Positions 2,318-59,472 of a DNA stretch of 59,472 nt are shown here, in pieces. How positions within the stretch are numbered: the stretch's first letter is position 1; each line of letters starts with the position of its first letter. The position numbers and the translations under genes were made by a program. A model generated the notes under the pieces. That model saw nothing but the letters and a program-made list of their open reading frames with translations. It searched no databases and had not been told where the DNA came from. Source of the stretch: Hydrurus foetidus (taxonomy: Eukaryota); the NCBI GenBank assembly GCA_900617105.1, contig UYFQ01000483.1, positions 1 through 59,472 of the forward strand, in the 5' to 3' direction.

Positions 2318-3541
2318 ATGCCACGATTCAAAAAGCTGACGCAACACGAGGGGCCAACTCCACTGAAAGCGTCAATAAAAGCCGTCCGGAAGATCACTAC
2401 CACGTCACAAAAGCGAAGTAAGTTCAACTTAACCCGGTTGCTAGATTCAAGTGTCGCCAAAAACTTATCCAATGAACTTTTGAACTATTGGCAATTAACC
2501 ATCAGTTAAGATTGCGAGACCAGAGAATTCAATGGCACAAAGCCCAAGCCACAGTCGAGTGGTAAGATCTTTTTGATCTCAATAGCTGAATTAAGAATCC
2601 TCAACTAACAAATCCATCAACCTCCGGAGAACAGGCGTAACTCCATCAGCAACAATTGCCAAACCAAACGCCAAATTGGCGAGAGCGTCAAAATCAAAGC
2701 CAACCACAAGCGGTAGGTTACACTCTATCCTTATACATGCTGCTTTAGCAACTGACTTCAACAACCTACCGTTTGTCAATGCTTTATCAACTATTCGATG
2801 ATCCCGGCTGTAATGACTCCAATTTGTGAACCAATAGCGAGCCCAACTCAAGAGGTGATCACCCAGCGACCTGCAATGTGGAAGGCATCTGAAAATCTAT
2901 GCATGCTCAGCGCGATGTTCAGTCTTATGAACGAAGAGCAGAAAAACTTAGTAACGGTGAGTTCGGACCATATGAGATCTTAACCGCTGGAGTTGATTTT
3001 AACAAGTTCATCATTATATTACAGATGAACCAAACCATGGATGTGAGAGATATTTAAGGCAGCAGTTGGTGAGCAGGGCAGAAACTTCGTTAGGGGAACA
3101 ACATCTACCGATGCGCACAGATTTTTCAGACATGTATCTAAGATGCATTTCGCGGCGACAGGATCGTTAGTTGTCTACAAATTCAAGCAGCTAGGGTTCA
3201 ACAACGATTGGGACATGTATTCAATTGAATCAAATTTATGTAGGCCAGGGAAATATGTATTCTTCGGAGCAACACGTAAAAATAATGACAATCACAAACG
3301 TTTGCTAACATCTATAACAGCGCAACACTCAGATTCCGATAAGTTAGATACATGGATAAAGGGAAAGCAAATTCTAAATGACCATGCGATTGGTGTCGAT
3401 GTTGACGACAATATGAATGGCACTATATATGACAATGGGTGTACTGCCGGTGAAAAAAAGATTTCAATACAAAATTTAGCAAAACGTATGCGATGGATGA
3501 ACCAATGTTTTCTTATGGATCTTTATGTCATAAAAAGTTAA
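2318..3541 (+). pseudogene. Intron-containing papain-fold (Josephin/C39-like) cysteine protease gene, one frameshift near 3052
   Basis: Exon WKASENLCMLSAMFSLM, intron GTGAGT..TTACAG 2957-3025, exon ...GEQGRNF...DHAIGVDV...IYDNGC; aligns with ORF 45342-46220; 5' exon structure uncertain. Confidence 0.65.
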
Positions 3542-16253: not shown

Positions 16254-16712
16254 TGTGGATCTGGCTAGAGGATATCACCTGATGACTTATAGTCCAACTG
16301 GTGTGGAGGCTACTGCAGTAGAACTCCAAGACTCGGCTAGAACGTTGTGTCGGCGAAATTGTAAGCTATATCGATTAAGATCTGCTTAGGTTTACAAGAT
16401 ACAGAAGATCTGCAGTTGGCAATCTGCATATGCAACTAATATGTGATTGGCTACCTGGCAAACGAGGTGGCGAGCAAGGTAGAGGTAAAATCATGTGTGG
16501 CGTTGCAAGAAAGATCATAGCAGTTTTGGCACTGAAAGGATGCTTTCGAATATGGGATGTATCGCCACCGGCCATATCTTGTATGTACAGTGTACGTTCT
16601 ATGGTGTACGTACGGTTACACATATATGTATACAGTACTACCTAACGTGTATCTATACTACTATATCTGCTACTATACAACAGACGTAACTACGTTGGTG
16701 GTTAGTCTGACA
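16254..16712 (-). repeat. 5' LTR copia A, PBS at ~16243-16253
   Basis: Direct repeat of 7920-8378; followed on minus strand by TGGTAGCGACT (initiator-tRNA-Met-like, cf. Ty1 TGGTAGCG). Confidence 0.97.
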
Positions 16713-17942: not shown

Positions 17943-18197
17943 ATTTCAGAAAATTTTAATAATCGTAGCGGATGTAAAACTATCGAATTAGGCCAGTCTT
18001 TATGACGCACATATTTTACATTTTTTGGATCCTTTTTTTGTAAATGTCGCCGTCGACTTGGCCTTATGACGCTAAAAAACGACAAAATAAAAAATGCAAG
18101 CGACATTTTTTAGAGAAGATTACACAGAAACAGCACTTTTTGTGTGAACGATGATTTCCAATGACGCCCAATACATAAATCATTAGCTTCATTCAAA

Positions 18198-20643: not shown

Positions 20644-22074
20644 TCACTTTCTTTTTTTAAGCCATTGAATTTGGTTTCGTTTATATTTCCATAAATAGTG
20701 ATCTACAAGTTTTTTTTGTAATGTAGTGTAAGATGATTCATATTCAGTATCACATTCTCCATGTACAATTCTAAAACGATCCTCCACTGCAACTGCGCCC
20801 ATAAGAGTATAATCAGTAAGTGGTGTCAAATTACGTACTCTACTTAAATGTTGCCTGAATATAATCATATCTTCATGAGCATGATCACCATCAAGTCCTA
20901 TATAATTTACGTTCTCTTCCCATCTAACATCTAAACCGTCGAAATGTAATAGAATATTATGCAATATACAACAACAGTAAAACATATTATCAATAGTAAC
21001 TTTATCATGATAATATATAGGCAATTTTAGACAACGGAATCTACCTTTTAAGACACCAAAGACAAACTCTACATCTTTACGAACTGTCTCTGCCCGTTCA
21101 CTCCATAGTGACTCTCTGGGAATAGCCGAATGTTTTAGAGGACATTGAAGGCACCTCCACTTGTGATAGCCGCCATCAACTAATAGCCAAGCTCCTTCTT
21201 CTTCATATTCCACACCGTCCCTTGTATTCATTTTATATTTAACATCCCCATATTTTAATCCATCATGAATGTCACTTACGAAACCATCGAATCTTACTAT
21301 AGTGCGATCACTTCTTGTACCAGGAAAACCATGCGTTACTGCAATAATTTTAGAAGTATGATCACAAGTTACTTCATAAGAGAGAGTGGGAAAACCTTCT
21401 TTACCCTTGTGTAGAACACGATCACCAGATGAACAACGTTCCCACTTGATGTGGACACAGTCGGTACTACCAATGCAACCCGGAAATCCTAGTCTATCAT
21501 ATACAGCCAGTGTTTTCGCAATCTCCTCTGGTGTCTCAGGAGGATTGCAATAGATAGAAAAATATTTGTGGGCAAAGTGATTGCACCATTTGTGGAAGAA
21601 TACTCTGTTGACCTCCGCACTTATATAAGAGAGTTCCTCTATCCCATCGAAGCAGAATCCCCTCCCGAGAACTCGAAGTACTCCAAGAATCTTCAGTTCC
21701 AAGGGGGCACACTTCTGCCCCGCAGCATCATTTTTTTCACTGAACCAACCATTACCTCGAGTCATTTCTACCAACCTCTCATACAAGGGGAAGGGTACAC
21801 GAAAACGTGTTCTGAATAGAACACCGCCCTTGCGATCGGTAGGATCTTGCGTTCTAGGGTGTACCAACATACGACCCCAACAAGACATTTCATATGGTGG
21901 ACGACCTTCCCATCTCCGGAATTTATATACTGGTTCATCAACTTTATTTATTCCTCTAATGAGAGGATGTTCCTCAACATCGTCTCCACGGGATTTCTTT
22001 CTTCGCATAAAGGCAGCCATATTGCGACCGATGTCTCCAGTAAATTTCTCGATATCATCATCGCTAGAATCCAT
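20644..22074 (-). CDS. PIF/Harbinger (DDE_Tnp_4-type) transposase, intact 476 aa
   Basis: GFPGCIGSTDCVH, GTRSD, LVDGGY, RKDVEFVFGVLKGRF, CCILHN. Confidence 0.95.
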   Translation of the reverse strand: MDSSDDDIEKFTGDIGRNMAAFMRRKKSRGDDVEEHPLIRGINKVDEPVYKFRRWEGRPPYEMSCWGRMLVHPRTQDPTDRKGGVLFRTRFRVPFPLYERLVEMTRGNGWFSEKNDAAGQKCAPLELKILGVLRVLGRGFCFDGIEELSYISAEVNRVFFHKWCNHFAHKYFSIYCNPPETPEEIAKTLAVYDRLGFPGCIGSTDCVHIKWERCSSGDRVLHKGKEGFPTLSYEVTCDHTSKIIAVTHGFPGTRSDRTIVRFDGFVSDIHDGLKYGDVKYKMNTRDGVEYEEEGAWLLVDGGYHKWRCLQCPLKHSAIPRESLWSERAETVRKDVEFVFGVLKGRFRCLKLPIYYHDKVTIDNMFYCCCILHNILLHFDGLDVRWEENVNYIGLDGDHAHEDMIIFRQHLSRVRNLTPLTDYTLMGAVAVEDRFRIVHGECDTEYESSYTTLQKKLVDHYLWKYKRNQIQWLKKRK

Positions 22075-22792
22075 TGCAAAGGATGTGAATAATGGAAATA
22101 TGCAATGAAAGATTGTAAAGATACCTCAAATTTATCATCGATCAGAATATGATACCGAATTTTTTTTTCGTGAAAACGTCATAAGGCTTGTTACATACAA
22201 ATAATCAAAATAAAACGTGTAAACGTCATAAGGTCAACCCAAATTTGTCGCCAAAAAAATGTTTTTCCCTACAAAAAAAGGAAAACGTAAAAAATGTTTT
22301 GTGTGCGTCATATTGATTATTTGTATGTAACAAGCCTTATGACGTTTTCACGAAAAAAAATTCGGTATCATATTCTGATCGATGATAAATTTGAGGTATC
22401 TTTACAATCTTTCATTGCATATTTCCATTATTCACATCCTTTGCAATGGATTCTAGCGATGATGATATGACGACTTTTCGCTGTAACCGGTCCCAGGTAG
22501 AAGTATTTTCGCCTCCATGGAAGAAAGTTCTTTTTTCTGAAAACGTAAGTTGTACTAGCTAAAATCACACAAAAGTACAGAAAAACACCGTATAAAACGT
22601 ATTTTGATGTTCTTGCTGTAACCGGTCCCAATTGAATCTCTGTAACCGGTCCCCAATATGAGTAGGCGGTCCCCTGTTTTTGTAACCGAGTTGACGTAGA
22701 GCTCAGCTGTTAATACATTCTGAATTCTGAGGGAGTAAAGCCGGAGGTCAGCATAGAATAATTCAACCCGGCACCCCACCAACTCTCGTAAA

Positions 22793-26611: not shown

Positions 26612-27067
26612 GGCTGTACCATAACGGTGTTTTAGACGGATATTGAGACCTTCTTTCTGTATTCGATCCCCGACCACATCAATAGGTCCTAAAAGTCTAA
26701 GAAACCGTTTTTCGCAACGAATATCACGAGTGCAATACTTTAAAGTACCATTACACGCATCATTATGATGAGATCTACTCAAAAATGCTATTTACATGTA
26801 AACGGTCCCATGCTTTCTGTAAACAGTCCCATGCTTTCTGAAAACGGTCCCATGCTTCCTGTAAACGATCCCCATAATTTTTATTCCCCGTTTTTTTCCA
26901 TCAGAAATTTTCCGTCTTTTTAAAACCGCTCCCCTGCTCTAAATAATACGAAGCAACTATATAACAGTACCATTACCGTACTTATCTCGACGAGAGCTAC
27001 TCAAAAACGATATCTCTTTGTTTTAAGTCCCCGAAATGGGACCGGTTACAGCGAAAAGTCGTCATAT

Positions 27068-27694
27068 CGAGAAATTTACTGGAGACATCGGTCGCAATAT
27101 GGCTGCCTTTATGCGAAGAAAGAAATCCCGTGGAGACGATGTTGAGGAACATCCTCTCATTAGAGGAATAAATAAAGTTGATGAACCAGTATATAAATTC
27201 CGGAGATGGGAAGGTCGTCCACCATATGAAATGTCTTGTTGGGGTCGTATGTTGGTACACCCTAGAACGCAAGATCCTACCGATCGCAAGGGCGGTGTTC
27301 TATTCAGAACACGTTTTCGTGTACCCTTCCCCTTGTATGAGAGGTTGGTAGAAATGACTCGGAATAATGGTTGGTTCAGTGAAAAAAATGATGCTGCGGG
27401 GCAAAAGTGTGCCCCCTTGGAACTGAAGATTCTTGGAGTACTTCGAGTTCTCGGGAGGGGATTCTGCTTCGATGGGATAGAGGAACTCTCTTATATAAGT
27501 GCGGAGGTCAACAGAATATTCTTCCACAAATGGTGCAATCACTTTGCCCACAAATATTTTTCTATCTATTGCAATCCTCCTGAGACACCAGAGGAGATTG
27601 CGAAAACACTGGCTGTATATGATAGACTAGGATTTCCGGGTTGCATTGGTAGTATCGACTATGTCCACATCAAGTGGGAACGTTGTTCATCCGG
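27068..27694 (+). pseudogene. Harbinger copy 2 transposase, N-terminal part
   Basis: Near-identical to copy 1 up to WERCSSG. Confidence 0.93.
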
Positions 27695-27910
27695 TGTGGT
27701 CGGGAGAGATGCAGGCTTGAGGGGTGATTGATACGGTTCAGAGGAAAGAGGAGCCCAACTTTCGATAACTTGAAATTAATGAGCGTAGCTCAGCAACAAT
27801 TCGACTCCGAAGTGCGTGGGTTATTACTCAATAGTTGGAAGTCGTAACTAAAGTTCGACGAGTAGAGAGAATTAGTGCAGTAGAAATTTCCCGATGGATA
27901 ATAGATCTAT

Positions 27911-28117
27911 TGTGGTCGGGAAATGGAGAAAGGGGGCGAGGAGTGGTAGGCTTAGTTACAGAGTCGCTATGCTAGAAGCTAGTTAACTTCTAAGTGGACG
28001 CTGCAGATGGCTACGACGATACTACAGCCTAACTGTAGTGTACAGTAGTAGTACCCGGTAGGATCCGGTAGAGTCGGTACCCGGTAGGATCGGGACCCTG
28101 GACCCGGTACTATCACA
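27911..28117 (-). repeat. 3' LTR of G1 (similarity to the 5' end extends, diverged, to ~27731)
   Basis: Plus-strand TGTGG...TCACA, adjacent PPT AAGATAAGTGGGGG on minus. Confidence 0.8.
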
Positions 28118-28495: not shown

Positions 28496-31400
28496 TCAAA
28501 CCTCATCGGTTGATCCCTCAAGATTCTTGGGAATAAAACGTGACATGTTATTATTCCGCAAGTATACATGGAGTGCATCACAGAGCCGGAGATTCTTCCA
28601 AGGCTCCCATGTATTATGTGAGTTATCATAGTTGAGCCATTTAACATGGAACGACATGGATGTCGGTTTCTTTGAATCACCAGTGTGACTAAGAACTTTC
28701 TCAACGAAATACTCCATGTAATCGCGACGTGCTGTATCAGCAGGTATGCCCAGCGATGGGTCATAATTGAAAATCTTAAGATTCTTCACATGTACACTAT
28801 TGTGCTTGTGTGTAATTAAGTTCGCGAGAACATACTCGGATCCCTCAAGGGAGACAACACGGAAAGGACCTTTCCACTTTGTGTGTAATCGAGTTGGAGG
28901 GTGTTCCTGTTTTACAAGAACATATGACCCTATAGGGAACACTGTCACACCTTGTGTGGACTTTTTGTGTTTGTCATCACATTTCTGAAGAGAACCGATT
29001 GCTGCATCGAGGACCTTGTCCTGTATATCGATGAGATCTGTGATGTATGTTGAATTCGAAGATGTCAACGTTGGTAATAGATGAGGTGTTAAAATACCCC
29101 GATTCAAATCAAGTTTATTGCCGAATAAAATCGAAGCAGGACTTGCATTTGTTCGTCGATTAACTGAACTGTTAATGATACGTTGAACGAATGGTATGCA
29201 TTTAGCATAGTGTTCAAGAGATGGTGTATCAAACACGAGACCGCGTAAGTGTCTATTCACTTCTTTGTTGACCCTTTCTACAATGGCATTCTCTTGTGAG
29301 GAGTAAGCCAAAGTGAGATTATGGGGTGTCCCCGTAAGGTCTAAGAACTCTTTAATGAGATCATTAGCGAATCATATTTGGCGATCCGAATCGACCAAAA
29401 TGAGTCAGTAAGCATTCAGTTGCAGACTGAGCAGTAGCATCCTTACACCAGAACATTTCTGTCCATCTGGAGAAGGTGTAAGTTATGACAAGAATATACC
29501 CTTTATCAGGGAATGGGTCAATATAATCGATATTTAATGTATCGAAAATAGCATGTGTTGAAGTTGAAAAATGAGCAGCGCTGATTTTTTGATCAACTGC
29601 GCTCAATTTCTGACAGCATGGGCAGTTTCGTATGAACGAGCGTACGTGCTGTTTCATATTTTTCCACAAGTGGTTAAGACTAAAGAGTCGAGTGAGGGTA
29701 CGGTCGACACCGTTGTGACCAACAATTGCATTGTGGCACATTTGAATGTAAACATTCTGTTCATCTGTCGGCGGTTTAATAACCGCTAAAGCCGAAACTG
29801 CGGAAGATGATGATGAAGAAGATGATGATGGAGTATCACCCTCGGACCTGATTGTCTTAGGCAGAGCAATTTCGGTAAGGTTTGGACATAACCGTGACAG
29901 AGCATCGGCAAGTTCATTATCTGTCCCTTTGACAAAGTGTACGGTAAAATCAAGTTCTTGCATGGCAATGAACCACCGTGTTACCATTGAGGTAGGGTTT
30001 TGTTTCATATAAGTCAAATTCATATGATCCGTATGAATAGTAAACTTACGGTCTCGAATGAGATAATCGAGTTGTTGGCAACAGAAAAAGATAGCATAAG
30101 CTTCTTTCTGTATTGTCGACCAATTAATTTGTGTTGCCGAGAGAGATTTGCTGATGAAGGCAATTGGTCTCCACACGATGTCGACAATTTGGAATAGTAC
30201 ACCACCGATTCCATAATCGGATGCATCAGTATATAGTCTGATGGGTGAATCATCATTGATGAAGTACATTAAAGGACAACGCGATACCGCGATTTTAGTC
30301 TCATTAAATGCTAAAGTCCCCTCGGGGGTCCAATATATGGGGAACGTTTAAGTGCCGTTGGGTCCACCATCATTTGAAGTTGTTTGACCATGTCCGAATG
30401 AAACGGTACAAATTGACGAAAATAGTTGGCTAAGCCAAGAAATCCACGAAGGGATGTTACTTACTTGAGACTGAATCTGCATTTCTTTGCTTTGAGTCTA
30501 AGATTCTTAAATCGAAATCTTTCAAAAACTCTGCGCAGATTCTTGAGAAACTCTGCTTCGCCCTGGCCATATACGATACAGTCATCGAGATACATCTCGC
30601 AACAGCTGTATATAAGACCGTAAAGGACCGTTGTGGCCATCTGCTCTTGAAAGTAAGAGGGGGCTCGACAAGGGCCAAAAGGCAATCTCGTGAACTGAAA
30701 CACCCCCATGAAACATATAAATGCGGTATAGATTCGGTGGGGTGTGTACAGAGGTGCTTGGTGGTAACCCGCGGTTAAATCCATTACTCCGTAAATATCC
30801 GGTTTTTTATTACCGATCCTCTCAAAGAGGTGTTTGATATTGGGTAGGGGAAAGGAGGCCGGCTCAATGCATTCATTGAGTGCACGATAGTCGATGCAGG
30901 TTCGATACGTATCGGCTGTCTTATTTACCATTACAGGATGACTGTAGTATGCAGCGTTCGACCTCTCGATCACACCATCCTCCAGCATCTCTTCAATTGA
31001 AGTGCGGAGGTAATGTTCCTTTTTAGAGGATTGTGGGCGCACTGGTGTGCGGTTCGATGGAACCTCCCATTTTGCCTAGGCAAATTGATCTCAAACGGTT
31101 TGAGATGTGCAGCTTGCGGGGCTAGCTTATCACTGAAAATATCAGCGAATTCTGAACAGAGAGTACGCAAATCCTTCTGAAGGCTTTCATCTCCCTCAAA
31201 ATGGATTTGTGACAAAAATCATCCGGCCCATTGGGCGGTACATTTCGGCACGTCTTGTCACGCAAGAAAGGTGCGAAAGTGTCAGTCTTGTCATTGTCAA
31301 TCTCGTCAACGGAGAGTGCGACACCGCTTGGCCATACGGCTTCCACGTCATAGTCTGATGTAACAGAGTCCCCAGAGGTATGTGTGAGGGTGGGAATCGA

Positions 31401-34540: not shown

Positions 34541-35461
34541 TGTCAGACCACTTGATTCTATCAAGATATGTCTGTAGTAATATAGTTGCAAATATAGTTT
34601 CAAATATATACATGTACGTTATGCGACACGTATGTACGTACGTAAGTACACATGCAGATATGATAACATGCACACGTACACACGTACTTACACATGTTAG
34701 TGCATACTCATTTATGCATACGTACACACATGTACTTACACATGTACGTACATAGTCAATATGTACGTACGTACGTACGTACGCACGCATGTAGCATAGC
34801 GTACACTTGTATGGTCACGCACACACGTACATACGTACGTGCACATGTTAGTACAAATTATTATATGCATACGTACACACACGTACTTACACATGTATGT
34901 ACATATATAATATGTACGTATGTACGATCGCCAATAGCGTAGTACATAGATGTATAGGCGTACATACGTAAGTACCACTGTACTTACGCATGTACGTTCT
35001 TATACATACACATGCATACGTACTCCTATAATATCGCCATATAGCAGTTAGTACTCACGCATGTACGTTCATATACATATACACGCATACGTACCCCTGT
35101 ACTATCGCCATGTATCAGTTAGTACGAACCCTCTGACCTCACGCAAATGAACGTTCGCCTTTCATGATTCTTCAGTATCGCCAAAACACTTCGTTACTAT
35201 AAGCATTCATGCAACGTTCCTCAAGCACATGCTATGAACAACACATCTCGCTGTGAACTTTGTCTCAAGGTAGTTTCACTGTCATGAACTGTTCTGATAG
35301 CTCTTTTGCGTGGCTATCTGTAAACTCTAATCAGAATTTAATACGTTGTACTTCACAGCTTCGTCTACTCGATAGCTCACTGAATTGAGACAGTAGCCTG
35401 CAGCTGCTTCTCCACCTTCGCTGCGAACGCTAGAAGGTGACATCTTGTATTTAGTCTTACA
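34541..35461 (+). repeat. 5' LTR copia B with alternating purine-pyrimidine U3
   Basis: TGTCAG...CTTACA; homologous to 380-1267. Confidence 0.95.
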
Positions 35462-39018: not shown

Positions 39019-39202
39019 GTGCAACCGGCTCAACTCTTGGTCACGAGTGTAAAGGAGCTTTCGATTTACGACCACGTGCATCGCGTACTAGGACACCCTG
39101 GCGAAGAGGGTATGGCCTGGCACCCACAGTACACCATTGGAGCACACTACTCCAACTTGGATGCATCTACACCAAGACCAATATGCGCAGCATGCGTACA
39201 GG
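39019..39202 (+). pseudogene. pol: copia B integrase N-terminal zinc finger (continues at 46969)
   Basis: YDHVHRVLGHPG...CAACVQ|GTMR restored after removing G2. Confidence 0.92.
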
Positions 39203-39528
39203 TGTTACATACGTTGCTTCATATAAATCACACGTACGTACATACACAATACACGTCACTCGTAGCCACTAGTTTTTCAGATCAGTTTTCGGTTTCTGTC
39301 TGTTCGACAACTTCAACTCGAGACATACTCCATCGTAGCTAAACTCACGCTCTTTTCACTCCTAAAGTAACCAAAGTCACTAAAACCCAAGAACCAGTTC
39401 GACTCCTTTCAGTCAACCGACCATCTCGTCTGTTCCAGTTGTTCAGCGAGAGATCTCAGCTTAGCCCAATTGCGAAGCTGATCAACACGTTTCATCTTCA
39501 GTCAAGTCTCTGAAGCCGTGATACAGCA
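39203..39528 (+). repeat. 5' LTR of G2
   Basis: TGTTAC...CAGCA, direct repeat of 46637-46962. Confidence 0.96.
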
Positions 39529-39722
39529 TAAATATATATTTCTCGTTTACACGAAAAACGTCTAAATCTCAGATCCCTCAGTTGATTCAATCCTTGTACG
39601 CCAGCATCGCAGTGATCGCCCTGGCTCAGCGAGATTTTGAATCTCTGAGGTAATTTCAATACGAAACGAATTGTCCCGAAAAATCATTCAAGAAAAACAA
39701 TTCTACAGTTTCTACATCTAAA

Positions 39723-41408
39723 ATGTCTGAAGGAAAAGGAAGCTTCAATCCTAAGAAGGAGGAGCCAAAGAAAGATGAATCCAAGAAGAAAATCGAGGTC
39801 GTTAAAGAAGATCCCGCTACAGATTCCAATTTCGAGCTCAAGCAGATGTTCGCTCAGTTTCTCATCTTAAGCAAAGACAATCAATCGCGCAATACTATCG
39901 ACATTCAAGAGCTGAGAGATGCAATCTTGGAATTGAAGAAAGGAAATTACCTATCTCCAATACTAGAAGAACTTACCGACACTCCTACGCTCAATAGACC
40001 TCGTGGAGGCAGAAGATCTTCTATGTTTTTCGGAATGTCTCAACCACCATCTAGCACCCTAGGACCAACAACAGACACTAAGCCGAACATACAAGTGCTC
40101 CAAGGCGACATCGTCTACGATAAGGAACTCAAAGTTAGTTCACTAGAAGGCCTTCAATATCTGGCCCGGCAACTTCAGCTTCTATCTTCCAAATATCCTG
40201 GTCGCGAGATCAAGATGGCCCACATGGTCTCCTACAACCTGCGCCCACATGTTCTAGCATCGTGGAACTCATATAGATATCGAGAGTCTGTTATCAATGG
40301 CGCTGAGTCAAGTGAAATTATGGTTGAAGATTGGTTATCTCTAACTAACCCTGAAGTTCAAGAGATCCTGGTGGAAGCTGCCCGACCCCGCACAAAAGAA
40401 TTGTACTCCAAGGAAATCGTCATATTCCTTGGTAAAGGAATCCCTCAGACACCTCCAATAAACACCGACAATTTCTCGAGCTCGTTCTATGCCCCACTGA
40501 TGAAGTCACTCAACGACTTGCTCCATCTTTATGACCTGATGTCACCGGAAACTTCAAACCACAGTGCCAATAAATCCAAAATACCAGTACCTGGCTACGG
40601 TACCAGGGACAGTCCTGGCCAAATCGCCTTATGGCTTATATCCCTAGGCGCTCAAAAAGAAGCTGTACTTCAATGGCTAGGCAAGGATGAACTTATCAAG
40701 CACAAAACTATTGAAACAGCAGTCAAATTCATTCGATCTCGACTAATGGAAGGTCGGGCCCAAAGCGAAGCTCGTCAAGACTTCGACGCAAAACTCACCC
40801 CTATCCGTTATGAAGACCTTCGACACACCCAAGGCGAATCCCACACCCGCCTGCAGACATCCGCGGCAGGTCGTCCACCTTTCGTGACTCCTCGCAGACA
40901 TGAGCACCGTCCACATCTGTCATCTCTCGTAACGTCCGCTCAACCACCGTCATACGCAATCGACAACGAACACAATGATGATGACACTCCAGATGACGAA
41001 ATCGATACTGATGCCTCAAGCATTCATGATGATATACATCATGACGACGATACCCTACTCGCTATCAACTCAGACATTAATCGTTCCCGATCAGCTGTCA
41101 GCGACACCTATCGTGGATATTGCAGCGAACTATTCGTCTACGGCAAATGCTCACGCCAACATTCTGGTTGCACATTTGATCACTCAGCTGCCGGTCAAGA
41201 GCGCTGCATCCAATCATTCTCCCTCCTGACCAAACGAGAGTTACAGCAGCATGCGCAGCTAGAGCCCTGGTCAAAACAGAAACAAGAATCTACAAACGCA
41301 AATAAATCCGCAAACACATACGGTTCCAAGCATGTTGGCTCTCCACATAGCTCTGGATCTGTCCGGCCCTATGTACCGTCAACTTTGACTCGGCCATATC
41401 AGAAATGA
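39723..41408 (+). CDS. gag: G2 Gag-like protein, 561 aa, with CCCH-type finger
   Basis: First ORF after the LTR; CSELFVYGKCSRQHSGCTFDH. Confidence 0.8.
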   Translation: MSEGKGSFNPKKEEPKKDESKKKIEVVKEDPATDSNFELKQMFAQFLILSKDNQSRNTIDIQELRDAILELKKGNYLSPILEELTDTPTLNRPRGGRRSSMFFGMSQPPSSTLGPTTDTKPNIQVLQGDIVYDKELKVSSLEGLQYLARQLQLLSSKYPGREIKMAHMVSYNLRPHVLASWNSYRYRESVINGAESSEIMVEDWLSLTNPEVQEILVEAARPRTKELYSKEIVIFLGKGIPQTPPINTDNFSSSFYAPLMKSLNDLLHLYDLMSPETSNHSANKSKIPVPGYGTRDSPGQIALWLISLGAQKEAVLQWLGKDELIKHKTIETAVKFIRSRLMEGRAQSEARQDFDAKLTPIRYEDLRHTQGESHTRLQTSAAGRPPFVTPRRHEHRPHLSSLVTSAQPPSYAIDNEHNDDDTPDDEIDTDASSIHDDIHHDDDTLLAINSDINRSRSAVSDTYRGYCSELFVYGKCSRQHSGCTFDHSAAGQERCIQSFSLLTKRELQQHAQLEPWSKQKQESTNANKSANTYGSKHVGSPHSSGSVRPYVPSTLTRPYQK

Positions 41409-44400
41409 GATTTTGCGAGGCCTTCGTTAGCTCACATGCACATCGAAGATCACCTCGCCGACCCTCATGACTACCCACTACAAAGTGTCTTCGACCCTGA
41501 CAACATCTTAACAGAAGCCTTGCTCAGTCAGTTGGCAACCGCTACATCCACCTCGTCGCAACTGCTGTGCCAACCCTTCATTCGTTCCGGTACCGTTGTT
41601 ACTAATACCAACCCAATTCTCTTCAGTCGTGGTCTACTTGATACGGGCGCTCAAGGCAGTAACTTCATCTCCCGTCAATTGTATGAAAGATTACCATCGT
41701 CTATAACTGACCTCAGCCGCTCAATTGACCGTGTTGTCCGTCTCGGCGATGCTCGCTCTTTATCAATTCAGTTGGAAGTTCCTCTCACACTTGGAATTCT
41801 CGATTCCACTAAGAATCTCCATCAACACACACTCTGGTATAGTGTCCTCGACGTTCTCAGCCATGACATCATCATTGGCTTGGTCGATCTAATTGGACCT
41901 TTTACGAGCTTTTTGCTGATGCTGTCACAACGTCTCGTCACTTATCTATCACGTCTGGACTTGGGACGCACTTAGTAGACCTCACTGCTGCCGTTCAAAC
42001 ACTTCACAGTGACCGAAATCCTCACGATATAGTTCGAGCAACCCATTCGCTACAACGGCAAACTGCTACCTATCTCGACCGAAAATCTCGAATGTGCAAT
42101 AGTACAAACACTCACATTCAGCTTCTTGCTCTCCAAGACGGCTCCATTACTGATGTTCTCAATCATCCTCGCCTTGGCTACGTCTATGCTGATGATCGTG
42201 TTGAAACTAGGTATGATGCTTTGACCGCACTGCTCTGTTCACCCAGTCCTGGTGACATCATTCAACCTTGGTCAAAGCCTATTGATTCCTTGGCTCCTGA
42301 GGAACTTGAGACTCCTGACCCAACGAGCTTCCCCGATGATATCCTCAATTATCTCACGACATCACTAGATGAAGCTCGCGCCATCTACATTGCCGACCTT
42401 GAGACACATGTTACTCCCGCTATGCGCACCGCTTGCCCAGCCATCATAGAACTATTACAATCCGACCTAGCATACGACGTATTTGTCCCAAGAACATGGA
42501 AAGGTATTGACATGCCTCCGGTACACCTTAGTGTCAAACCCGGCATGCCTGATTATCTCAAGGCTAGACCTCGCCCAATTCGAGAGGCTTTATTCCAAGA
42601 TGCTAAAACAGAATTTGACCGCATGCAATCATACTTCTATGTAAAATCTACATCTCCAATTGCTTGCCCGCTCGTCATCGCACCCAAAGCTACTGCTCCC
42701 TACATACGATTCTGTGGAGACTATCGTGAAATTAATCCCTTCATCGAAATACCTCAAGAACCCATTCCACATGTCCAACAGTCCTTAGCAAAGGCTGCCG
42801 GTTGGAAAATATTTGTTGACTTAGACATGACCAACTCATTCCATCAAATTCCCATCGACGAATTCAGTTCCAATCTCCTCTCTGTGTCTACCCCCTGGGG
42901 ACTCTTCCGACCTAAGTTTCTCCCAGAAGGTGTTGGACCTGCGTCTGGAATTCTTCAGTCCATCGTCCGTCGCATTTTTGCTGATTTCGAAGCCTGGATT
43001 ATAGTAATCTTTGACAATTTTCTTGTGCTGGCCTCTGATTACCAAGATGCTATTACAAAGCTCAAACTAGTACTTCATCGCTGCCAGATCAATGGCCTTA
43101 TCCTTAAAATGAAGAAGTCATGGATCGGCACCGACGTCGTTACCTTCTTTGGTTATGAAGTTCATCCCGGATCATGGCAACTCTCCGACACTCGCAAAGC
43201 GGCTATATCCTCCATGATCTTTCCTACCACGCAAAAACAAATGCAGAGTTTCTTAGGAGCTGCAAATTTTTTCCATACACATATCCCCAACTTTGCTTCC
43301 TGGGCGTCGGCGCTATACGAATGCACTGTCTCTGGCTTCAACTGGGATCCCTCAACATGGAAGACAGACTACAAGAAACTCTTTGACCTCTTCAAGACAG
43401 CAATCACACAGTCTGTCACCTTGCACTTTCCCGACTACACTCTGCCTTGGGTCGTCCGCTCTGACTCCTCCGACCATGCAGTAGGCGCAGTTCTTTTTCA
43501 GGAATTCACCGACTCCAACGGAGCTATCATACATCAGCCGATAGCATTTGCATCCCACAAATACTCAGGCGCTGCCATCAATTGGGACACCTTCAAACAA
43601 GAAGCTTACGCATTGTACTTTTCAATCATTCAGTTTGGCTACTACCTACGCGGTAAACCATTCCTCCTTGAAACAGATCACCGTAACCTCGTCTGGATTG
43701 AAAGCAGTCAGGTCCCCATTGTCGTTCGCTGGCGTGTCCTCCTCCAGAGCTATATTTTCGAAGTTCGACACATTCCAGGAAAAGACAATACCGTAGCTGA
43801 CTGGCTCTCACGCATGTACCCCATACATACTGCATCACCCTCTCTCTCTGCGATCTCAACTCCTACCACCATCACTGACATGTTTAACGCTGTACATGGT
43901 GGTCGCTCCCTCCATCATGGTGCCAAGCGGACGTACTTAGCTCTCTGTCGACGTTTCCCTGGCCATGGCATTCCTCTCAGAGTAGTCCAGGATCTTGTCA
44001 CTGAGTGTCCTCTATGCCAAAAGGATCGACTTCCAATACAAACCATCGAACACAACGAAGTCCGTGAAACATTATTTCACCACCCACGATCTATCGGTAT
44101 AGATCATGTCACTATCACTCCACCGGATGAAGACGGATACATTGGTCTACTACTTGTTGTTGAACTTGATACGAAGTTTCCTCAAGCCTACCCCATCCGA
44201 GATTACACAGCGTATACTGCTGCCACTGTTCTCTTCAAACACTATTGCACATTTGGTACCTACGACTCCCTCTACTCAGACCCTGGCAGTGCCTTCACTG
44301 CTACTGTCCTCGAACATCTCAACCATTGGATCGGTATCCCTCATCATGTTTCCCTCGTTGGCCGACACGAATCCAACGGCACTGAACACGTTAATGGACT

Positions 44401-45169
44401 CTTCCTGGGTCACCTTCGCAGACTTGTCCATGATGAACGATTCACCACCAGATGGGCTTCTGATACAGTCCTACCTCTCATCAACCATGCAATGATGACA
44501 CTGCCCAACACTGAAATTGGCGGTCTCTCGCCTGCTGAACTCAAATTTGGCACTCAAGATTATGCCCGATTCCAGCTGCCACCTCCACTATCACCGGGTC
44601 ACACCTACAGTGATCTCGTAATTGCCCTCGACCGTAACCTTGCCATCGTCCGATCAATCACCTCTGAGTACCAAAACTCACTCCGTCAGCGCCGCCAGTG
44701 TGCTATGCCATCCGATTCCCACAATGTCTTCCAACCCGGTGACCACATCCTCTGGAACCCGTTAGAAACACCCCAATCGTTCCGCTCCAGCAAACTGTCT
44801 CCAAAACTCCTTGGTCCATATGAAGTAATTCAACAAATCAAGAACGATATTAGTTGCCGACATGTTGTGACAAACATCGTTTCCAAACTTCATGCAAGTC
44901 GAGTTACTCCTTACTTCGGCTCCCCTGCAACTGCGTACACTACAGCTCTCCTTGACCGTGATGAATACATCATCGATTTGATTGTCACTCACCGAGGCAA
45001 TCCAAAGAAAGTGTCCACACTCGAATTCCTTGTTCGCTGGCAAAATTACTCCGCAATCCATGACACCTGGGAACCATGGATGGAAATGAAAAACACATCA
45101 GCAGTTCACCTATACCTAAAAACAAATAACATGAAACACATAATACCAAAACAATTCACAAAAGACTAA
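41409..45169 (+). CDS. pol: G2 pol (PR-RT-RH-IN-chromodomain), one 1-nt frameshift in a T-run at ~41900
   Basis: LLDTGA, DLDMTNSFHQ, IFDN, SDSSD, ADWLSR, HHG..CPLC, LLGPY, VRWQNYSAIHDTWEP. Confidence 0.93.
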
Positions 45170-45341
45170 CCTGCAACTTTCCGACTTTACACACTGCTTA
45201 ACTCATGTTTAACCCCTGATTTATGTTGTGACTTGTTTAGTCCGGTATCACGTGGGGCCTCAGGTATATACCACACCCTTCATTTTACCATTCTGACAAA
45301 TCACAAGGGTGTTACCCCGACAATCAATAATTTTTTTAATC

Positions 45342-46220
45342 TTATAATTCATACAATGCAAACTCATAACATAAACACAAATCCTCCATGCGATCAACCA
45401 TGTTATGAGCAGTATATTTCTTCATGCCATATGTACACCCATTGTCCACAATCATCGTCGCATCCGGATTCTCTTCCACTCTAATGCCTATCGCGTGATC
45501 AATTGTTTTCAGTCCAAGTGCATATTTTCCCCATTCCTCCACGACTTGTGCTTCCGTCAATGTGTTCAAATGCTGCATCCATTTCTTGTGCTTATCAGTT
45601 GCCCATCTCGTCTTCCCCAAAATCACAAACTTCTTTCCTGCCTTATTCAAAACAGTTTTCTTCAAACTATTAACATCCCAACCCAACCCAGACTTCATAT
45701 TCATCCCCGTCCTCTTCCACGTGAACTTGACATCCTTTCCTCTTGCCTGATTATTCTCAACAATTCTCCACAAAACCTTCAGTACCTCATGACTATTCAC
45801 CCCTTTCAACAGAGTTCTCCCCTGTCCTCCTATAACTGATATGATTAAGTCCCTTGGATCTATACTCCCACCACATGTTAAAAGTTCTTTTCCTACAGCA
45901 TCTAATACGTTAAACACCGCGAACATCATGCACTGATTCTCTGTCTTTGGCCACAGCACAATATTCTCTTTCTCAATAACATCCCTAATTGCTTGTGCTC
46001 TTGCATTCGCTTCTGCCTTCGCTTTTGCCTTCACTTCTGCTTTCGCTTTCGCTATTGCTATTGCGACCCTCTTCTCCTCCGCTTTCGCTATCGCTCCTGG
46101 TGTTGCATCTGCTATCGCTTTCGCCAATGCTTTCGCCACTAACTTCAATGCTGCTTTCGCTGCTTTTGCCTCTGGAGTTGCAACAGCCCTTCCCATTGTC
46201 GCTCCGTAATCTGCTATCAA
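45342..46220 (-). CDS. Antisense accessory ORF in G2: papain-fold cysteine protease with A/K-rich N-terminus
   Basis: Intact 292 aa; ENQCMMFAVFNVL, DHAIGI, IVDNG give Cys-His-Asp order; homolog at 2318-3541. Confidence 0.78.
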   Translation of the reverse strand: MIADYGATMGRAVATPEAKAAKAALKLVAKALAKAIADATPGAIAKAEEKRVAIAIAKAKAEVKAKAKAEANARAQAIRDVIEKENIVLWPKTENQCMMFAVFNVLDAVGKELLTCGGSIDPRDLIISVIGGQGRTLLKGVNSHEVLKVLWRIVENNQARGKDVKFTWKRTGMNMKSGLGWDVNSLKKTVLNKAGKKFVILGKTRWATDKHKKWMQHLNTLTEAQVVEEWGKYALGLKTIDHAIGIRVEENPDATMIVDNGCTYGMKKYTAHNMVDRMEDLCLCYEFALYEL

Positions 46221-46636
46221 TATCTCACTATATCAAATGCCAATGTCAACTCTATACTCAATCTGTTCTATATTCACTCTTGTATGTATGAAATTGTGAA
46301 TCTCTGATTGATTTGATCAATGTATATATCGCTCAAACTGTCAGTTCGTTTTTGTTTTTGTATATTTTCGATCAGTACACGTCACCAAGAAAAATAAAAA
46401 AATGACGTCGTTGACGGTTTCAACTGACGCCGCGTTCCAGTAGTCTGGTGGGAAGTCTTTCGCTCAAGACGCTTGAGGCCGCGTGTCCGATTCCACTTAA
46501 ATGCCTAATAATTTCCTAATCACTTCATTCAGCTTTTATAGCGATACCTTGTACTTGACGAACTCACTGAGATGTAGTTAATGCATTGTATTTATTTATT
46601 GTCAACTATAATATATTTAAACCGAAAGGGGGGTGG

Positions 46637-46962
46637 TGTTACATACGTTGCTTCATATAAATCACACGTACGTACATACACAATACACGTCACTCGTAGC
46701 CACTAGTTTTTCAGATCAGTTTTCGGTTTCTGTCTGTTCGACAACTTCAACTCGAGACATACTCCATCGTAGCTAAACTCACGCTCTTTTCACTCCTAAA
46801 GTAACCAAAGTCACTAAAACCCAAGAACCAGTTCGACTCCTTTCAGTCAACCGACCATCTCGTCTGTTCCAGTTGTTCAGCGAGAGATCTCAGCTTAGCC
46901 CAATTGCGAAGCTGATCAACACGTTTCATCTTCAGTCAAGTCTCTGAAGCCGTGATACAGCA
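46637..46962 (+). repeat. 3' LTR of G2
   Basis: Direct repeat of 39203-39528, preceded by PPT. Confidence 0.96.
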
Positions 46963-46968
46963 TACAGG

Positions 46969-49797
46969 GCACGATGCGACGGACCTCTACGGACCATCTT
47001 CGTATACACCGTTTGCCATCTCCTTGCTACGGCAGTCAATTCTCACTTGACGCGTATACACATACACATCGGTCACAGGCCGGTTATAAGTACTGCGATA
47101 TCATCACGGACTTATCTACAAGACGCAGTTATCCATGCTTCACGAAAGACCGGGGAGCTGCAGAACTTGTCAAAAGCTTCTCCACCCTCTTCCAATCACA
47201 TCCTGAGTGGAAGCCCTTGCTTCCAGGCGTAGACCGATTCATCAGAGCCGATGCAGAGAAATCTTATCGGTCAGCTGAATAACTTCAATGCCTTCACAAC
47301 TTCGGATATCGACTTGAGCCAACACCACCTCGCGACAAACATGCAAATGGAATCGCAGAACGTGCAGTAGGCGTCTTATCGATGAAGTGCAACATCACCA
47401 TGCAACCTTCAGGGATGTCAGTACCACAGAAGTTCTGGGATCTTGCCTTTGAGTATACATGCATCACCCATGCATTCAATTACCATTCAGCAATCAAGAC
47501 ATCACCGTATCATCTCATCACTGGAAAGCATGTAATCCTCAAGAACCTCAAGGCCTTTTGGAGCTTATGTTGGGTTCACATCGCGCTTGAAGATAGGAAA
47601 GGAAAAATCGGTTTTCCTCGTGCATACAAAGCCAGATTCGTTGGTTACGATTTATCGAGAACGCTCGAGCCTTGTTTTAAGGTCATCGAAATACTACCAA
47701 CCGGAATCTTCGGCAAAATTAGGACAAGTAAGGACGTCATTTTCGACAAAGACAATAATTATAATTACACGGACGAGTACCCATCCGATCTTGACTTTTC
47801 TAATTTACACCAGAATATCAATAACGATATCTCTGCAGTCCTACCAGCTAACAAGGTAGTTGAAAAAGATTCTGAACAACAACTAGCAACTCCAGCTATT
47901 CCAATACACCCTGTACATGTAATACCTTGCACTATTCAGAATCGAACTCCTGAAAATCCTATTCCAGCGAAAATACATCCAAATGTCATTAACAATAACA
48001 AAATTGTTAATAAATCTGGATCGACTAATATCAAATCAACAAAACAGAATATACCGTTTGATCCAACACCAATTAGAGATACAAATAACAAATCCGACAT
48101 CGATGATAATGACATTGGTATTAATACACCAATTCAAAACATTGAAAATGACGATGCTGTTTACTGGTACTCTACTCATGTTAGAAATCACGAACATTTT
48201 CTCTCATTGATTGAAGCAAGTCATCACGAAAAACTCTTCATCAATTTCGATCAACTCAATGTGCCAAAATCATTCTGGAAAGCTATGGCTATACCTGAAT
48301 GGAAAAACGCAATAGATACTGAATTAAAGAAATTCGAGAAGAACTCATGTTTACATGTAGTACCATATATTGACCAACACCTGGTACCAATGATGTGGCT
48401 TTTTGGTATAAAAACCGACGGTACGAAAAATGCCCGTTTAGTGGGACGGGGAGATATGATGATACCACTCGTGGACTTCGACCCCGACGCCGTATACTGC
48501 GGAAATGTATCATCGTGTTCCATCAAAGTGGCACTAAGCATTGCAGCAGCATATGGACTAGTAATGAAAGGAGGTGACCTCATTGGTGCTTACCTCATTA
48601 CAAGAGCAAATGTTAACTTCCCGGTGCACATAAAGACACCGCAGGGATACACTTGCCCACCCGGTTTCTGCTTTCAGGCTGTCGGCAATCTTTATGGATT
48701 CCCACCTGCAGGGCAAAACTTTTCCATAGAGTTCGATATTTGTATCTTCGAGTGTGGTTACAAGAACACACCCTGGGACCTCAAGTTCTTCTTTAAATGG
48801 ACCACAGATGGTAGACCCATGCTTATCATCGCTCACAGTGATGACTTCAGATGGTTTGGTCCTTCGGACAAACTTGATGAATGGGATCTGATTATCGCCA
48901 CCTTCAATGCACACAAGTATGAAGTCACTGATGCAACTGACAAGGAGTTCGTTGGTATTCGTATTCAGCGTGATGAAGATGGCACATATTATATGGATCA
49001 ACATCGCATGATTGATTCAATAATAAAAGAGGCTAATATATCTGGTGCGAAGGACATGCACTTACCATACCCGACTGGGGACCAAGAACCTGCATTGTCA
49101 AAACTAGACAACGCTTCTACCCCTGAGGAACGTATGCAGTGTATGAAGTACCCGTACAGGAGGGTCGTGGGTCAACTAATGTACGGTATGGTACATACCA
49201 TGGTCGGCATTCTGTATGCACTCAATGTACTATCCCGCTATGGTAACAACCCAGGTCCCAGACATATTAAATTCCTCAAACACTTATTGCAGTACTGCAA
49301 GTACGCACGAAGTGATCGACTAGTGTTCCATGGACACGATGGACCCAGAGACATCGAGACTATGACAACGCTACTTCAACTCCGGTTTCAATGCGATGCA
49401 GATTTGGGTGGTAATCCCGACAATAGCCACTCCCAGACTGCATACCTTGGATACCTCGGCCGTAACCTTATCTGCTGGTGTTCCACCGACCAAGGCAGCA
49501 TATCAACATCAACGGCAGAGTCGGAAATCAAGGCTGTCAACCATACACTCAAAGCAGAGGTCATAGCCAACAGAGGCATCCTAAACATGATGGGATGGGT
49601 CCAAGGTCCAACCTCTACTGAAGAAGACAACCAAGCCTGTATATACCATTCTAAGGCAGCACACATGACACGCAAGCTAAGGCACCTCGACCTCACCGAA
49701 AACTGGGTCAAAGAGAAGGTTGCTGATGGTACTTGCGTAGTTGTTAAAGTTAAATCGTGCGATAATAATTCAGATATTGGTACAAACAGAGTTTCTC
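46969..49797 (+). pseudogene. pol: copia B integrase core-RT-RNase H (in-frame TAA at 47280; cut by copia C)
   Basis: FSLDAY, RADAEKSY, NGIAER, AHSDDF, CDADLGG, STAESE. Confidence 0.95.
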
Positions 49798-57620: not shown

Positions 57621-59472
57621 TTAACGGTAGTTTGCGATGAATTCGCGTGGTATTAAGTGTTTGAGGTTCTTTTTGATTAAGAACTCATGTACTTTTTGCG
57701 CTTTACGCATGTGTGTCCACGGTTCCCATGTATTGTGTTCATGGGTGTAGTTGAGCCATTTCACATGAAATGTGAGTGATTTGTATGCTCTTATGTTTCC
57801 TTTCATGTCTAGGATTTCCTCTATGAAGAATTCCAGATAATCTCTACGAGCAATGTCAGTTGGATCGACATGCGTAGGATCAAAGTGAAACGGTTTTAGT
57901 TGGGTCATGTGGTACAACTTTTCTTTGTGTGTTACCAGATCGAGTAATGTATACTCTGCGAAGTTATGGCTGACAACTCGCATTGGGCCGCGCCACAGTG
58001 TGTGCATGCGCGTTTCTGGTGATGTTCTTTGTTGGACAAGTACAAATGTGTCGACTCCGAACTGTGTGACGTTGGGAGGTTGTTGTGCATTGTGCAAGTC
58101 GTCGGATTCTTTGAGTAGACGTGCGGTGATTTCGATGAGTTCATCTTGCAACGTTAACATTTTATCAGTTGACCGTGTGAGTGAGTCGAAATCTAAATCA
58201 ATTTCATCTCTCGGAAGGAGGATGTTTGCGTCGAGGTCGATCGCGTTGCCATAGATGAGTTGTGCTGGAGACACTTTCATCCGGTCATTTACGGTTGAAT
58301 TTAGTATTCTTTGTACAAACGGTAATATTTCCGCGTAGTTTTCCGTAGTTGCGCGTTCGTATGCGTACGCGGTTATATGGCGATTGATTTCTTTGTTGAT
58401 TCGCTCGACGATAGCGTTTTCTTCTGAACAGTATGGTAATATTTTGTTGTGTGTTGTTCCAACAATCTTCACAAACTCATCTATGATGTGGCTTGCGAAG
58501 TGGGGTCCATTATCTGATCGAAGTATACATGGTGAGCCGTAGCGTCCCACGTGTTCTACAAGTGCTGTGCACGCTGATTTGGCTGTTGCATCAGGTGTTG
58601 CGTAGAGTTCGACAAACCTTGAGAAGGTGTCGATCATAACAAGGATATATCCTTTATCGGGAAATGGACCAATGAAGTCTATGTTAAGGCATTCCATTGG
58701 TTTGTAGGTTGAGGTTGTGTACCGGTATGCGTTGATGGGATATTTCATTGCCGACATCTTTGGCAACACGGACAATTTTTAATGAATGTTTTTACTGCGT
58801 CACGCATTCCCAGCCATATGTTATTTGTTTTCTTTAAATTACGCAGTGTGCGTTGTACACCACCATGTCCGACTATCGTGTTGTGGCACGTTGCAATTAG
58901 GTTATATTGCTCTGTCGTTATTGGTTTGTGTGTCAGAATTGCTGCTATTATTCCTGTTTTAGGAGGCATTCTGTTTTTACATAGGCGAGACATTGCGTCA
59001 GCAATTTCATTTTGTTTTCCCGGGATGTACCCTATCGTATATTCTAGTTCCTGCAGGGCCATACGCCATCTGCCGACCATCTCGTTTTTATCCTTTTCTA
59101 GGAACGTAAGATTTTTGTGGTCTGTTAGGATTGTGAATTTACGGTCTCGTAGCAGTGCGTCGAGATAAGTACAGCAATAATATAGCGCGAAGGCTTCTTT
59201 TTGTATTACTGACCATTTCAGTTGAGTCTTGGTAAGAGACTTGCTTACGAGAGCGACGAGTTGTTTTTCTCCGTCGACTTCTTGATACAAATAGCCGCCG
59301 ATCCCGTAATCTGACGCATCGGTCATGAGGGTAATGGGCGCTGTATCGTGTATGAAATATAATAAAGGACTCTTTGCAATTAGATCTTTTATCTTTTGAA
59401 AAGAATTTGCGGCGTCATCTGTCCAGATTAGCATTGATTGCTTTTTCGCGGCGTGATCTATAATTTTGTGCA
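57621..59472 (-). CDS. pol: G3 pol: RNase H, integrase, chromodomain (1-nt frameshift ~58762)
   Basis: TDASDYG, ADAMSR, GHGG..CPCC, IDFIGP, SDNG, VERIN, WRGP, VKWLNY..NTWEP. Confidence 0.95.

Follow-up and report, generated by a model that had tools for sequence, protein, structure and literature searches.

Some plant retrotransposons of the Ty3/gypsy group carry, between pol and the 3′ long terminal repeat (LTR), an additional open reading frame (aORF) in antisense orientation, of the class aORF-3R, with maize Grande (gene23), rice RIRE2 and Retand (TRP28) as examples. The products resemble no known protein or share only the TRP28 domain of unknown function, and the Grande gene is transcribed from its own upstream promoter (PMC7264820, PMC11963269). 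Other transposable elements carry thiol proteases: Helitrons contain VTD and OTU proteases of the ubiquitin type (structure 8ADD is that of zebrafish DrT1-VTD2), and the VTDs have been argued to protect from ubiquitin-dependent removal (PMC9741609), while Ginger1 and Mutator transposons carry OTU and Ulp1 domains (PMC2836005). Here we analyze a stretch of 59,472 nt from Hydrurus foetidus (contig UYFQ01000483.1, hereafter the window), rich in transposons with Copia, gypsy and PIF/Harbinger elements, in which a young Ty3/gypsy chromodomain element harbors an antisense gene in the position of the plant aORFs. A sequence-only reading of this DNA had pointed to the gene and had mentioned the antisense 3′ ORFs of plant gypsy elements, a precedent that Grande, RIRE2 and Retand indeed provide (PMC7264820, PMC11963269). 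Our results indicate that the gene is conserved and travels with the element, and that its product is predicted to be a papain-like cysteine hydrolase of a new family.

A conserved antisense gene travels with the element

The 284-codon frame is a real, conserved gene that accompanies the element in other samples. The positions of the pol stop codon and of the polypurine tract (PPT) (Table 1) place it between these two landmarks and opposite to pol, just as the sequence-only reading had described. That reading had also counted an uninterrupted frame of 292 aa: the frame is open, with 296 codons from stop to stop, but 292 is a stop-bounded figure whose start at 46220 has no ATG, and the protein measures 284 aa from the first ATG. 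Among 2000 mononucleotide shuffles of the 1467 bp at 45170-46636, none contained an open frame of at least 292 codons (mean 104, maximum 232). The G+C content at third codon positions is 0.44 in the antisense gene, 0.45 in gag and 0.46 in pol.

A word-indexed protein search returned 13 homologs at E ≤1e-3, with 48-99% identity, 12 of which cover at least 81% of the query; 11 are 284-296 aa long with matching ends, and the Ala/Lys-rich N-terminus is kept in the 12 full-length close homologs. They come from metagenome-only sources (JGI, ENA and Logan), where the sole name given is ‘hypothetical protein’. The identical protein is recorded on 11 contigs, the longest of 7453 nt, and the 90% cluster has n=20. 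The longest contigs of the relatives cluster at about 7.0-8.9 kb, that is the size of the element, which gives a hint only. Physical linkage is seen in a 3032-nt DNA contig of another study, which covers 43800-46763 and includes the 3′ part of pol, the gene, the PPT and LTR; it differs from the window at 26 positions, none in the antisense gene and 25 in the non-coding segment 46386-46526. In four DNA runs from four studies, none of the 12 indels listed (of 15) between 43800 and 47100 falls in the 852-nt gene, whereas ten lie in the 766 nt of spacer plus LTR and two, which compensate each other, lie in pol. Runs from 14 metagenome studies, of freshwater, sediment, biofilm and the like, contain the stretch 45170-46636 itself.

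The presence of the gene in other copies of the family, on which the sequence-only reading depended, is thus supported by the 13 homologs, by the 3032-nt contig with pol and LTR and by the 11 contigs with the identical protein. As expected for an aORF-3R, the gene is present across copies rather than as a one-off transduction, with homologs intact down to 48% identity. Pattern scans of metagenome and viral contigs for related loci gave pattern matches, among which no relative was confirmed.

The spacer upstream of the gene is the most variable part between copies and contains TATA-like motifs, TATAAAAG at about 46533-46540 and TATATA at about 46330. Its segment 46386-46526 is hypervariable and concentrates the differences of the 3032-nt contig, pol and the antisense gene being unchanged; this patch could reflect recombination between element variants or promoter turnover.

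A predicted papain-like domain with a conserved triad

Structure prediction assigns the last 210 residues a fold like that of papain-like cysteine hydrolases. The AlphaFold2 (AF2) model of residues 75-284 was computed with an 84-row alignment and reaches the predicted local distance difference test (pLDDT) and predicted template modelling (pTM) scores given in Table 1; the run with a 15-row alignment gave a pLDDT of 56.7 and was left unsearched. In the model the overall fold resembles that of solved papain-like enzymes over the whole domain, with the Cys at the N-terminus of a helix, the His at the start of a strand and the Asp directly after the next strand, the arrangement expected of the clan CA type, where an Asp/Asn follows the His by about 16-20 residues on the neighboring strand. 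The His-Asp spacing is 17, as compared with 16 in ComA (Cys17/His96/Asp112; PMC5481443) and 16 in PaJOS (Cys66/His187/Asp203; 10.1101/2024.07.24.604956). When the model is aligned with ComA PEP (model residues 3-208 to chain residues 6-141), residues 15/160/177 fall, by simple offset, within 1-3 positions of the ComA triad.

A Foldseek search against the PDB gave no row at E ≤1e-3, and the top rows are staphopains, PaJOS, the C39 peptidases ComA and PCAT1, cathepsins and AvrPphB. Going by their titles, 44 or more of the 50 nearest structures represent thiol proteases or isopeptidases, and six titles (22oc, 8brf, 5wdk, 6a0n, 8ssm and 2btw) are uninformative. About 20 of the 50 belong to deubiquitinase (DUB) families, namely VTD, M48, Josephin, USP, UfSP and ZUFSP, and the rows also include the PeiR endoisopeptidase, a phytochelatin-synthase-like protein and CdiA-CT toxins. 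Among the viral structures of BFVD no row reached E ≤1e-3, the weak rows being AvrRpt2-like, C1-like and endolysin. In a language-model search, both the antisense protein and a homolog 51% identical to it had C39-like, IpaJ and ACTMAP-like peptidase clusters as neighbors (scores 0.91-0.95, 132-159 shared features), which are to be taken as leads only.

Within this predicted fold, Cys89, His234 and Asp251 likely act as the catalytic triad. They belong to the motifs ENQC(89)MMFAVFNVL, DH(234)AIGI and IVD(251)NG. Considering the rows of the 84-row alignment that have a residue at each position, Cys89 is found in 25/27 and His234 in 78/78; at position 251, 71 of the 76 rows have Asp and four have Asn, and the adjacent Asn252 is kept in 71/77. 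Asp/Asn alternation at the third triad position is tolerated by papain-type triads. The residues picked from the letters alone are therefore those conserved family-wide in this alignment, and the papain fold assumed with them agrees with the AF2 model, in its pLDDT, its papain-like structural neighbors and the placement of the triad residues as in papain. The same holds for the A/K-rich helical N-terminus: residues 1-78 contain 28 Ala and 13 Lys and, in the AF2 run with the 15-row alignment, are modelled as two long helices, 8-30 and 33-77, with pLDDT of about 77-82.

Two other interpretations of these motifs were rejected. Cys254 of D-N-G-C as nucleophile, in the His-before-Cys order of Ulp1/adenain-like enzymes, does not fit with its retention in only 51/77 rows, nor is any Ulp1-type structure present among the 50. 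An OTU-like interpretation of E-N-x-C finds no OTU structure in the same 50 rows.

A new family of predicted papain-like hydrolases

Searches of Pfam, NCBIfam and PHROGs matched no known peptidase family, with hmmscan limits of E ≤10 for this protein, E ≤10 for the 15 alignment rows and E ≤5 for 13 diverse members, and profiles built from 15 and 84 rows matched no PDB sequence. Because sequence matches are lacking and the structural neighbors are tied, we call the protein, on the basis of its model, a new family with a papain-like fold. The label ‘Josephin-like’ of the sequence-only reading could not be retained: Josephin (PF02099) was matched by neither the protein, the 15 rows nor the 13 diverse members, and the likeness is one of several equally good ones.

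The closest known groups each differ from it. Compared with Josephin/MJD proteins (JOSD2 6PGV, ATXN3L 3O65; BpJOS, PcJOS and PaJOS), the antisense protein has no PF02099 match and lacks the aromatic gatekeeper; Josephin structures rank below VTD, C39 and staphopain, yet within about 1-1.8 Z. C39 leader peptidases (ComA PEP 3K8U/5XE8/5XE9, PCAT1, 6MPZ) appear to superpose best, but the protein has no PF03412 match and its Cys-to-His interval is 145 as opposed to 79 in C39, about 65 extra. C39 domains are found at the N-terminus of ABC exporters or in bacteriocin loci. They belong to bacterial exporters, whereas the antisense gene stands alone in a eukaryotic LTR element, in the context of neither an ABC transporter nor a bacteriocin. 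The gatekeeper of PaJOS is Phe188, directly after the catalytic His, and is described for conventional DUBs (10.1101/2024.07.24.604956). VTDs are marked by an Asp-x-His motif that does not vary and by an active site that is mirrored (PMC9741609). The antisense family instead shows [D/T/N]-H-A, with D233 in 60/78 rows, and the conventional order Cys...His-x16-Asp/Asn.

Wider family and a second member in the window

Searched with a profile, the word-indexed collection yielded 55 proteins; an exhaustive HMMER search of 1.84 billion representatives gave 103 at E ≤1e-3, 55 of them at E ≤1e-10, and none exceeds 284 aa. All the members seen occur in several copies and only in metagenomes, many of them decayed in the manner of transposon copies. 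Members of about 205 aa (for example P0059, P0072, P0076, P0088 and P0137) start just before the Cys motif, without the Ala/Lys-rich part, and others of about 170 aa start after the Cys motif at M-N-G-T-M-D-V-R-D.

By tblastn, the only second homolog in the window is at 2837-3526 on the forward strand (27% identity, E 3e-20). Removal of a 68-nt intron (Table 1) brings its two exons into one frame, and the distance from the Cys motif to D-x-R-D is then 31 residues in both genes. The contigs recorded for P0057, which corresponds to exon 1, and for P0018, which corresponds to exon 2, both measure 3073 nt. Since the intron splits the gene, prokaryotic gene callers see exon 2 only, which explains the members of about 170 aa. 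The copy in the window is a pseudogene owing to a frameshift after MNQTMDVRDI, and it retains ENLC.., DHAIG and YDNGC. The sequence-only reading had announced conserved motifs in a homolog at 2318-3541: the motifs are there, but the homolog is the interrupted gene at 2756-3541, with intron and frameshift, and not an intact ORF. Just downstream of it lie two identical direct repeats of 182 bp, at 3589-3770 and 3944-4125, 355 bp apart.

Possible expression of the antisense strand

One contig of a metatranscriptome (run X19) suggests that a spliced antisense transcript extends beyond the gene: it joins 45064 to 45169 (cut +2) with CT..AC on the forward strand. The corresponding candidate intron lies in the 3′ untranslated region (UTR), 172 nt downstream of the gene stop; its donor and the pol stop codon overlap. 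The joint of 104 nt is not among the seven listed for the four DNA runs, and we estimate that about 5% of arbitrary deletions would display GT..AG on either strand by chance, given the six possible cuts. In three RNA or RNA-like libraries, parts of the gene are represented by contigs, which carry no strand. The canonical intron of the second member lies on its own coding strand and was counted toward expression of the antisense strand.

Possible function and rival explanations

The accessory gene of the element probably encodes a thiol hydrolase. That this enzyme would be a peptidase or isopeptidase recognizing a small Gly-type C-terminus, in other words not a general protease but one of ubiquitin or of a ubiquitin-like protein (Ubl), is a serious possibility, though short of an even chance. 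The sequence-only reading had put forward a deubiquitinase- or deSUMOylase-like effector that may act against host silencing; here, too, such a role is conjectural. The analogy is drawn because DUBs and Ubl proteases make up about 20 of the 50 nearest structures, C39 peptidases also cutting after Gly-Gly, and because all described transposon-borne thiol proteases are of the ubiquitin or SUMO kind. In such a scheme a promoter within the 430-bp spacer by the PPT would drive the antisense gene, whose transcript would be opposite to the strand of the genomic RNA. As the genomic RNA is the other strand, this layout would leave room for a separate promoter and, in the case of the sister subfamily, for an intron. 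By removing a tag from a protein of the element or of the host, the enzyme would help transposition intermediates to survive; it might keep Gag, integrase or the pre-integration complex from being removed through ubiquitin, and the Ala/Lys-rich N-terminal helix might direct or anchor it, nucleic acid and chromatin being conceivable sites. Taken as a whole, the proposal that an active LTR element encodes a DUB or Ubl protease of an unrecognized papain-like family, that this protease removes a host ubiquitin-type mark from element proteins or from the chromatin of the landing site, and that antisense expression permits introns and an own promoter, is one that we hold tentatively and consider somewhat unlikely in all its parts. 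If true, no enzyme-type counter-defence gene would have preceded it among retrotransposon genes outside gag-pol-env, and thiol DUBs would gain a ninth or so class.

Several observations weigh against the main reading, an accessory gene for a papain-like hydrolase. Besides the failure of all the family databases and PDB sequences to give a match, residue 235 after the His is Ala in 72/78 rows and not the aromatic gatekeeper of DUBs, no conserved Gln is found 5-6 residues before the Cys, and in two fragmentary relatives (P0092 and P0124) Phe replaces the Cys. Papain-like folds also include amidases, acyltransferases, deamidases and transglutaminases, so that the enzyme need not be a peptidase. 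No gypsy pol, PPT or LTR was recognized around 2756-3541, which leaves the second member without an adjacent gypsy pol. As to expression, the spliced contig is single, 162 nt long, of depth 5.5, strand-less and located downstream of the stop codon, and an intron within a 3′ UTR is unusual.

Some of these points would suit a papain-like enzyme that does not act on ubiquitin, either a C39-like peptidase processing leaders or N-termini (as ComA/PCAT1, IpaJ and ACTMAP), on Gag for example, or an amidase, acyltransferase or deamidase. The missing aromatic residue goes in this direction, as do the C39-like, IpaJ and ACTMAP-like clusters among the language-model neighbors and the PeiR, phytochelatin-synthase-like and CdiA-CT rows of the structure search. 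We nevertheless regard it as rather unlikely, considering that Pfam gave no C39, IpaJ or ACTMAP match, that neither an ABC transporter nor a leader peptide is found in the context, that DUB families occupy such a share of the structure rows and that the known transposon-borne thiol proteases are all of the ubiquitin/SUMO type (PMC9741609, PMC2836005). Catalysis could also be irrelevant, the locus acting through an antisense transcript (self-regulation by double-stranded RNA or small interfering RNA) or through a non-enzymatic, nuclear or DNA-binding Ala/Lys-rich protein. The 78 N-terminal residues, basic and helical, would fit with the latter, and the plant aORFs of Grande, RIRE2 and Retand are without enzyme similarity and are discussed either as regulators that act in the nucleus or bind DNA or as a source of double-stranded RNA (PMC7264820, PMC11963269). 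However, the frame and the triad are kept down to about 20-30% identity, which a mere transcript would not need, and the relatives of about 205 aa that lack the Ala/Lys part keep Cys, His and Asp; we thus judge this explanation improbable.

Even less probable, to the point that we hardly credit it, is that the gene is a passenger, a host gene transduced by one lineage of elements with no role in their life cycle, the family then consisting of host genes. The second member, with its intron and no gypsy pol within reach, could be viewed in this way. On the other hand, the antisense gene is intact with the same architecture at 48-99% identity and in many variants on element-sized contigs, and in an independent sample pol and LTR accompany it; moreover, the members are multi-copy, metagenome-only and often decayed like transposon copies. 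For plant elements, family-wide aORFs of this kind are kept apart from one-off transductions (PMC7264820). We therefore keep as preferred reading an accessory gene for a thiol hydrolase, with ubiquitin or a Ubl as its possible target.

Structure and age of the element

The element has been recently inserted, as indicated by its identical LTRs, its target site duplication (TSD) and an empty site. The latter is a 566-nt contig of another sample (run X17) that joins 39196 to 46963, skipping 7766 letters, with 6 letters fitting both sides; it follows that the gypsy insertion is polymorphic and young. The order reverse transcriptase (RT), RNase H and integrase, the C-terminal chromodomain, the LTRs, the PPT and the TSD identify a chromovirus. 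Its description as a young chromovirus by the sequence-only reading was accurate, given the identical 326-bp LTRs, the TACAGG TSD, the empty site and the chromodomain of pol. Pfam matches of pol are RT_RNaseH (2.2e-23), RVT_1 (1.7e-10) and Chromo (1.9e-07, residues 959-1006), rve and Integrase_H2C2 being below the cut-off.

Table 1. Coordinates of the antisense gene, of the element that carries it and of the second family member in the window
Feature	Position	Strand	Details
Antisense accessory gene	45342..46196	-	284 aa + stop; ATG at 46196, TAA 45342-45344
Ala/Lys-rich N-terminal helical extension (modelled)	45963..46196	-	residues 1-78
Predicted papain-like catalytic domain	45345..45974	-	residues 75-284; AF2 pLDDT 91.5, pTM 0.89
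Cys89 codon, predicted nucleophile	45930..45932	-	model residue 15, opens helix 15-22
His234 codon, predicted general base	45495..45497	-	model residue 160, opens strand 160-165
Asp251 codon, predicted third triad member	45444..45446	-	model residue 177, after strand 174-176
Spacer 5′ of accessory gene	46197..46623	-	~430 bp; candidate own promoter, predicted from motifs
Candidate intron of antisense transcript	45067..45170	-	104 nt; CAG/GTTAGT ... TTCCCAG/G
Ty3/gypsy chromodomain element	39203-46962	+	7,760 bp; nested within Copia element
TSD TACAGG, 5′ copy	39197..39202	.	flanks LTR
5′ LTR	39203..39528	+	326 bp, TG..CA
gag ORF	39723..41408	+	561 aa; CCCH-type zinc knuckle; in-frame TGA at end
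Aspartic protease ORF	41436..41975	+	LLDTGAQG; gag frame; Pfam Asp_protease_2 weak, E 0.16
pol	42092..45169	+	RT, RNase H, integrase, C-terminal chromodomain; TAA stop 45167-45169
PPT GAAAGGGGGGTGG	46624..46636	+	directly before 3′ LTR
3′ LTR	46637..46962	+	326/326 bases same as 5′ LTR
TSD TACAGG, 3′ copy	46963..46968	.	flanks LTR
Second member, exon 1 with Cys motif ENLCMLSAMFSLM	2756..2956	+	exon also in P0054, P0056, P0057, P0058
Second member, canonical intron	2957..3024	+	68 nt; ACG/GTGAGT ... TATTACAG/ATG
Second member, exon 2 with His and Asp motifs	3025..3541	+	intact relatives P0016-P0044

Some features of the coding region are peculiar. The Gag knuckle is of CCCH rather than CCHC type. 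The gag ORF stops at an in-frame TGA (41406-41408), the protease ORF continues in the gag frame, and pol lies in the -1 frame and overlaps the end of the protease ORF (about 41880-41975), an arrangement that points to read-through of the stop together with a -1 frameshift.

Two other gypsy pol genes of the window, at 28520-30919 and 57639-59425 (both reverse strand), are 25-29% identical to that of the element. The former is separated from its LTR (27877-28115) by about 400 bp, too short for the antisense gene; as there is no room for it behind this pol, the accessory gene is lineage-specific. The Copia element into which the gypsy element inserted belongs to a family with a further copy at the start of the window, the LTR-like repeats being 94-99% alike (34541-35461 versus 380-1267, and 1-175 versus 49613-49786). 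In the DNA of run X11, the depth of the host Copia sequence is about 100-fold above that of the gypsy element.

Elsewhere in the window, another Copia element with identical ends of 300 bp and more (LTRs at 7920-8219 and 16254-16553) is bracketed by 607-bp inverted repeats, 99% identical, at 5320-5926 and 17337-17943; these repeats could represent either the ends of a larger DNA transposon or an inverted duplication. A PIF/Harbinger-type transposase is encoded at 20647-22125 on the reverse strand (Plant_tran 3.7e-29, DDE_Tnp_4 1.8e-20), and part of another such transposase lies at 27027-27728 on the forward strand.

Comparison with known systems

The antisense gene and the plant aORF-3R share major features: they occupy the same slot in the same opposite orientation, and both are family-wide rather than single-copy. 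Their hosts are different, since the plant elements are non-chromovirus Tat/Retand members with several kb between pol and LTR, whereas here the gene sits in a compact chromovirus of a freshwater eukaryote. The products differ as well: those of plants are without enzyme similarity, TRP28 being thought to bind DNA, whereas the product described here is a predicted thiol hydrolase. With respect to the proteases of Helitrons, Ginger1 and Mutator, which are sense fusions to proteins of DNA transposons, this one would be encoded by a separate antisense gene of an LTR retrotransposon. Searches of the open-access literature, which also took in antisense ORFs of diatoms, stramenopiles and chromoviruses, brought up no LTR retrotransposon whose accessory protease is papain-like or of the OTU type.

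The slot and transposon-borne thiol proteases were already known, and what is new is the protein family, the host lineage and their combination. An orphan, metagenome-only family of at least 103 clusters is thereby added to the papain-like superfamily. Antisense extra genes of plant LTR retrotransposons have been known for 25 years, none having a recognizable biochemical activity (PMC7264820, PMC11963269). With a product predicted at high confidence to be an enzyme with an intact thiol-protease triad, the function of an antisense aORF may become a question for the bench. Such a gene would also extend the carriage of ubiquitin/SUMO proteases from Helitrons, Ginger and Mutator to retrotransposons.

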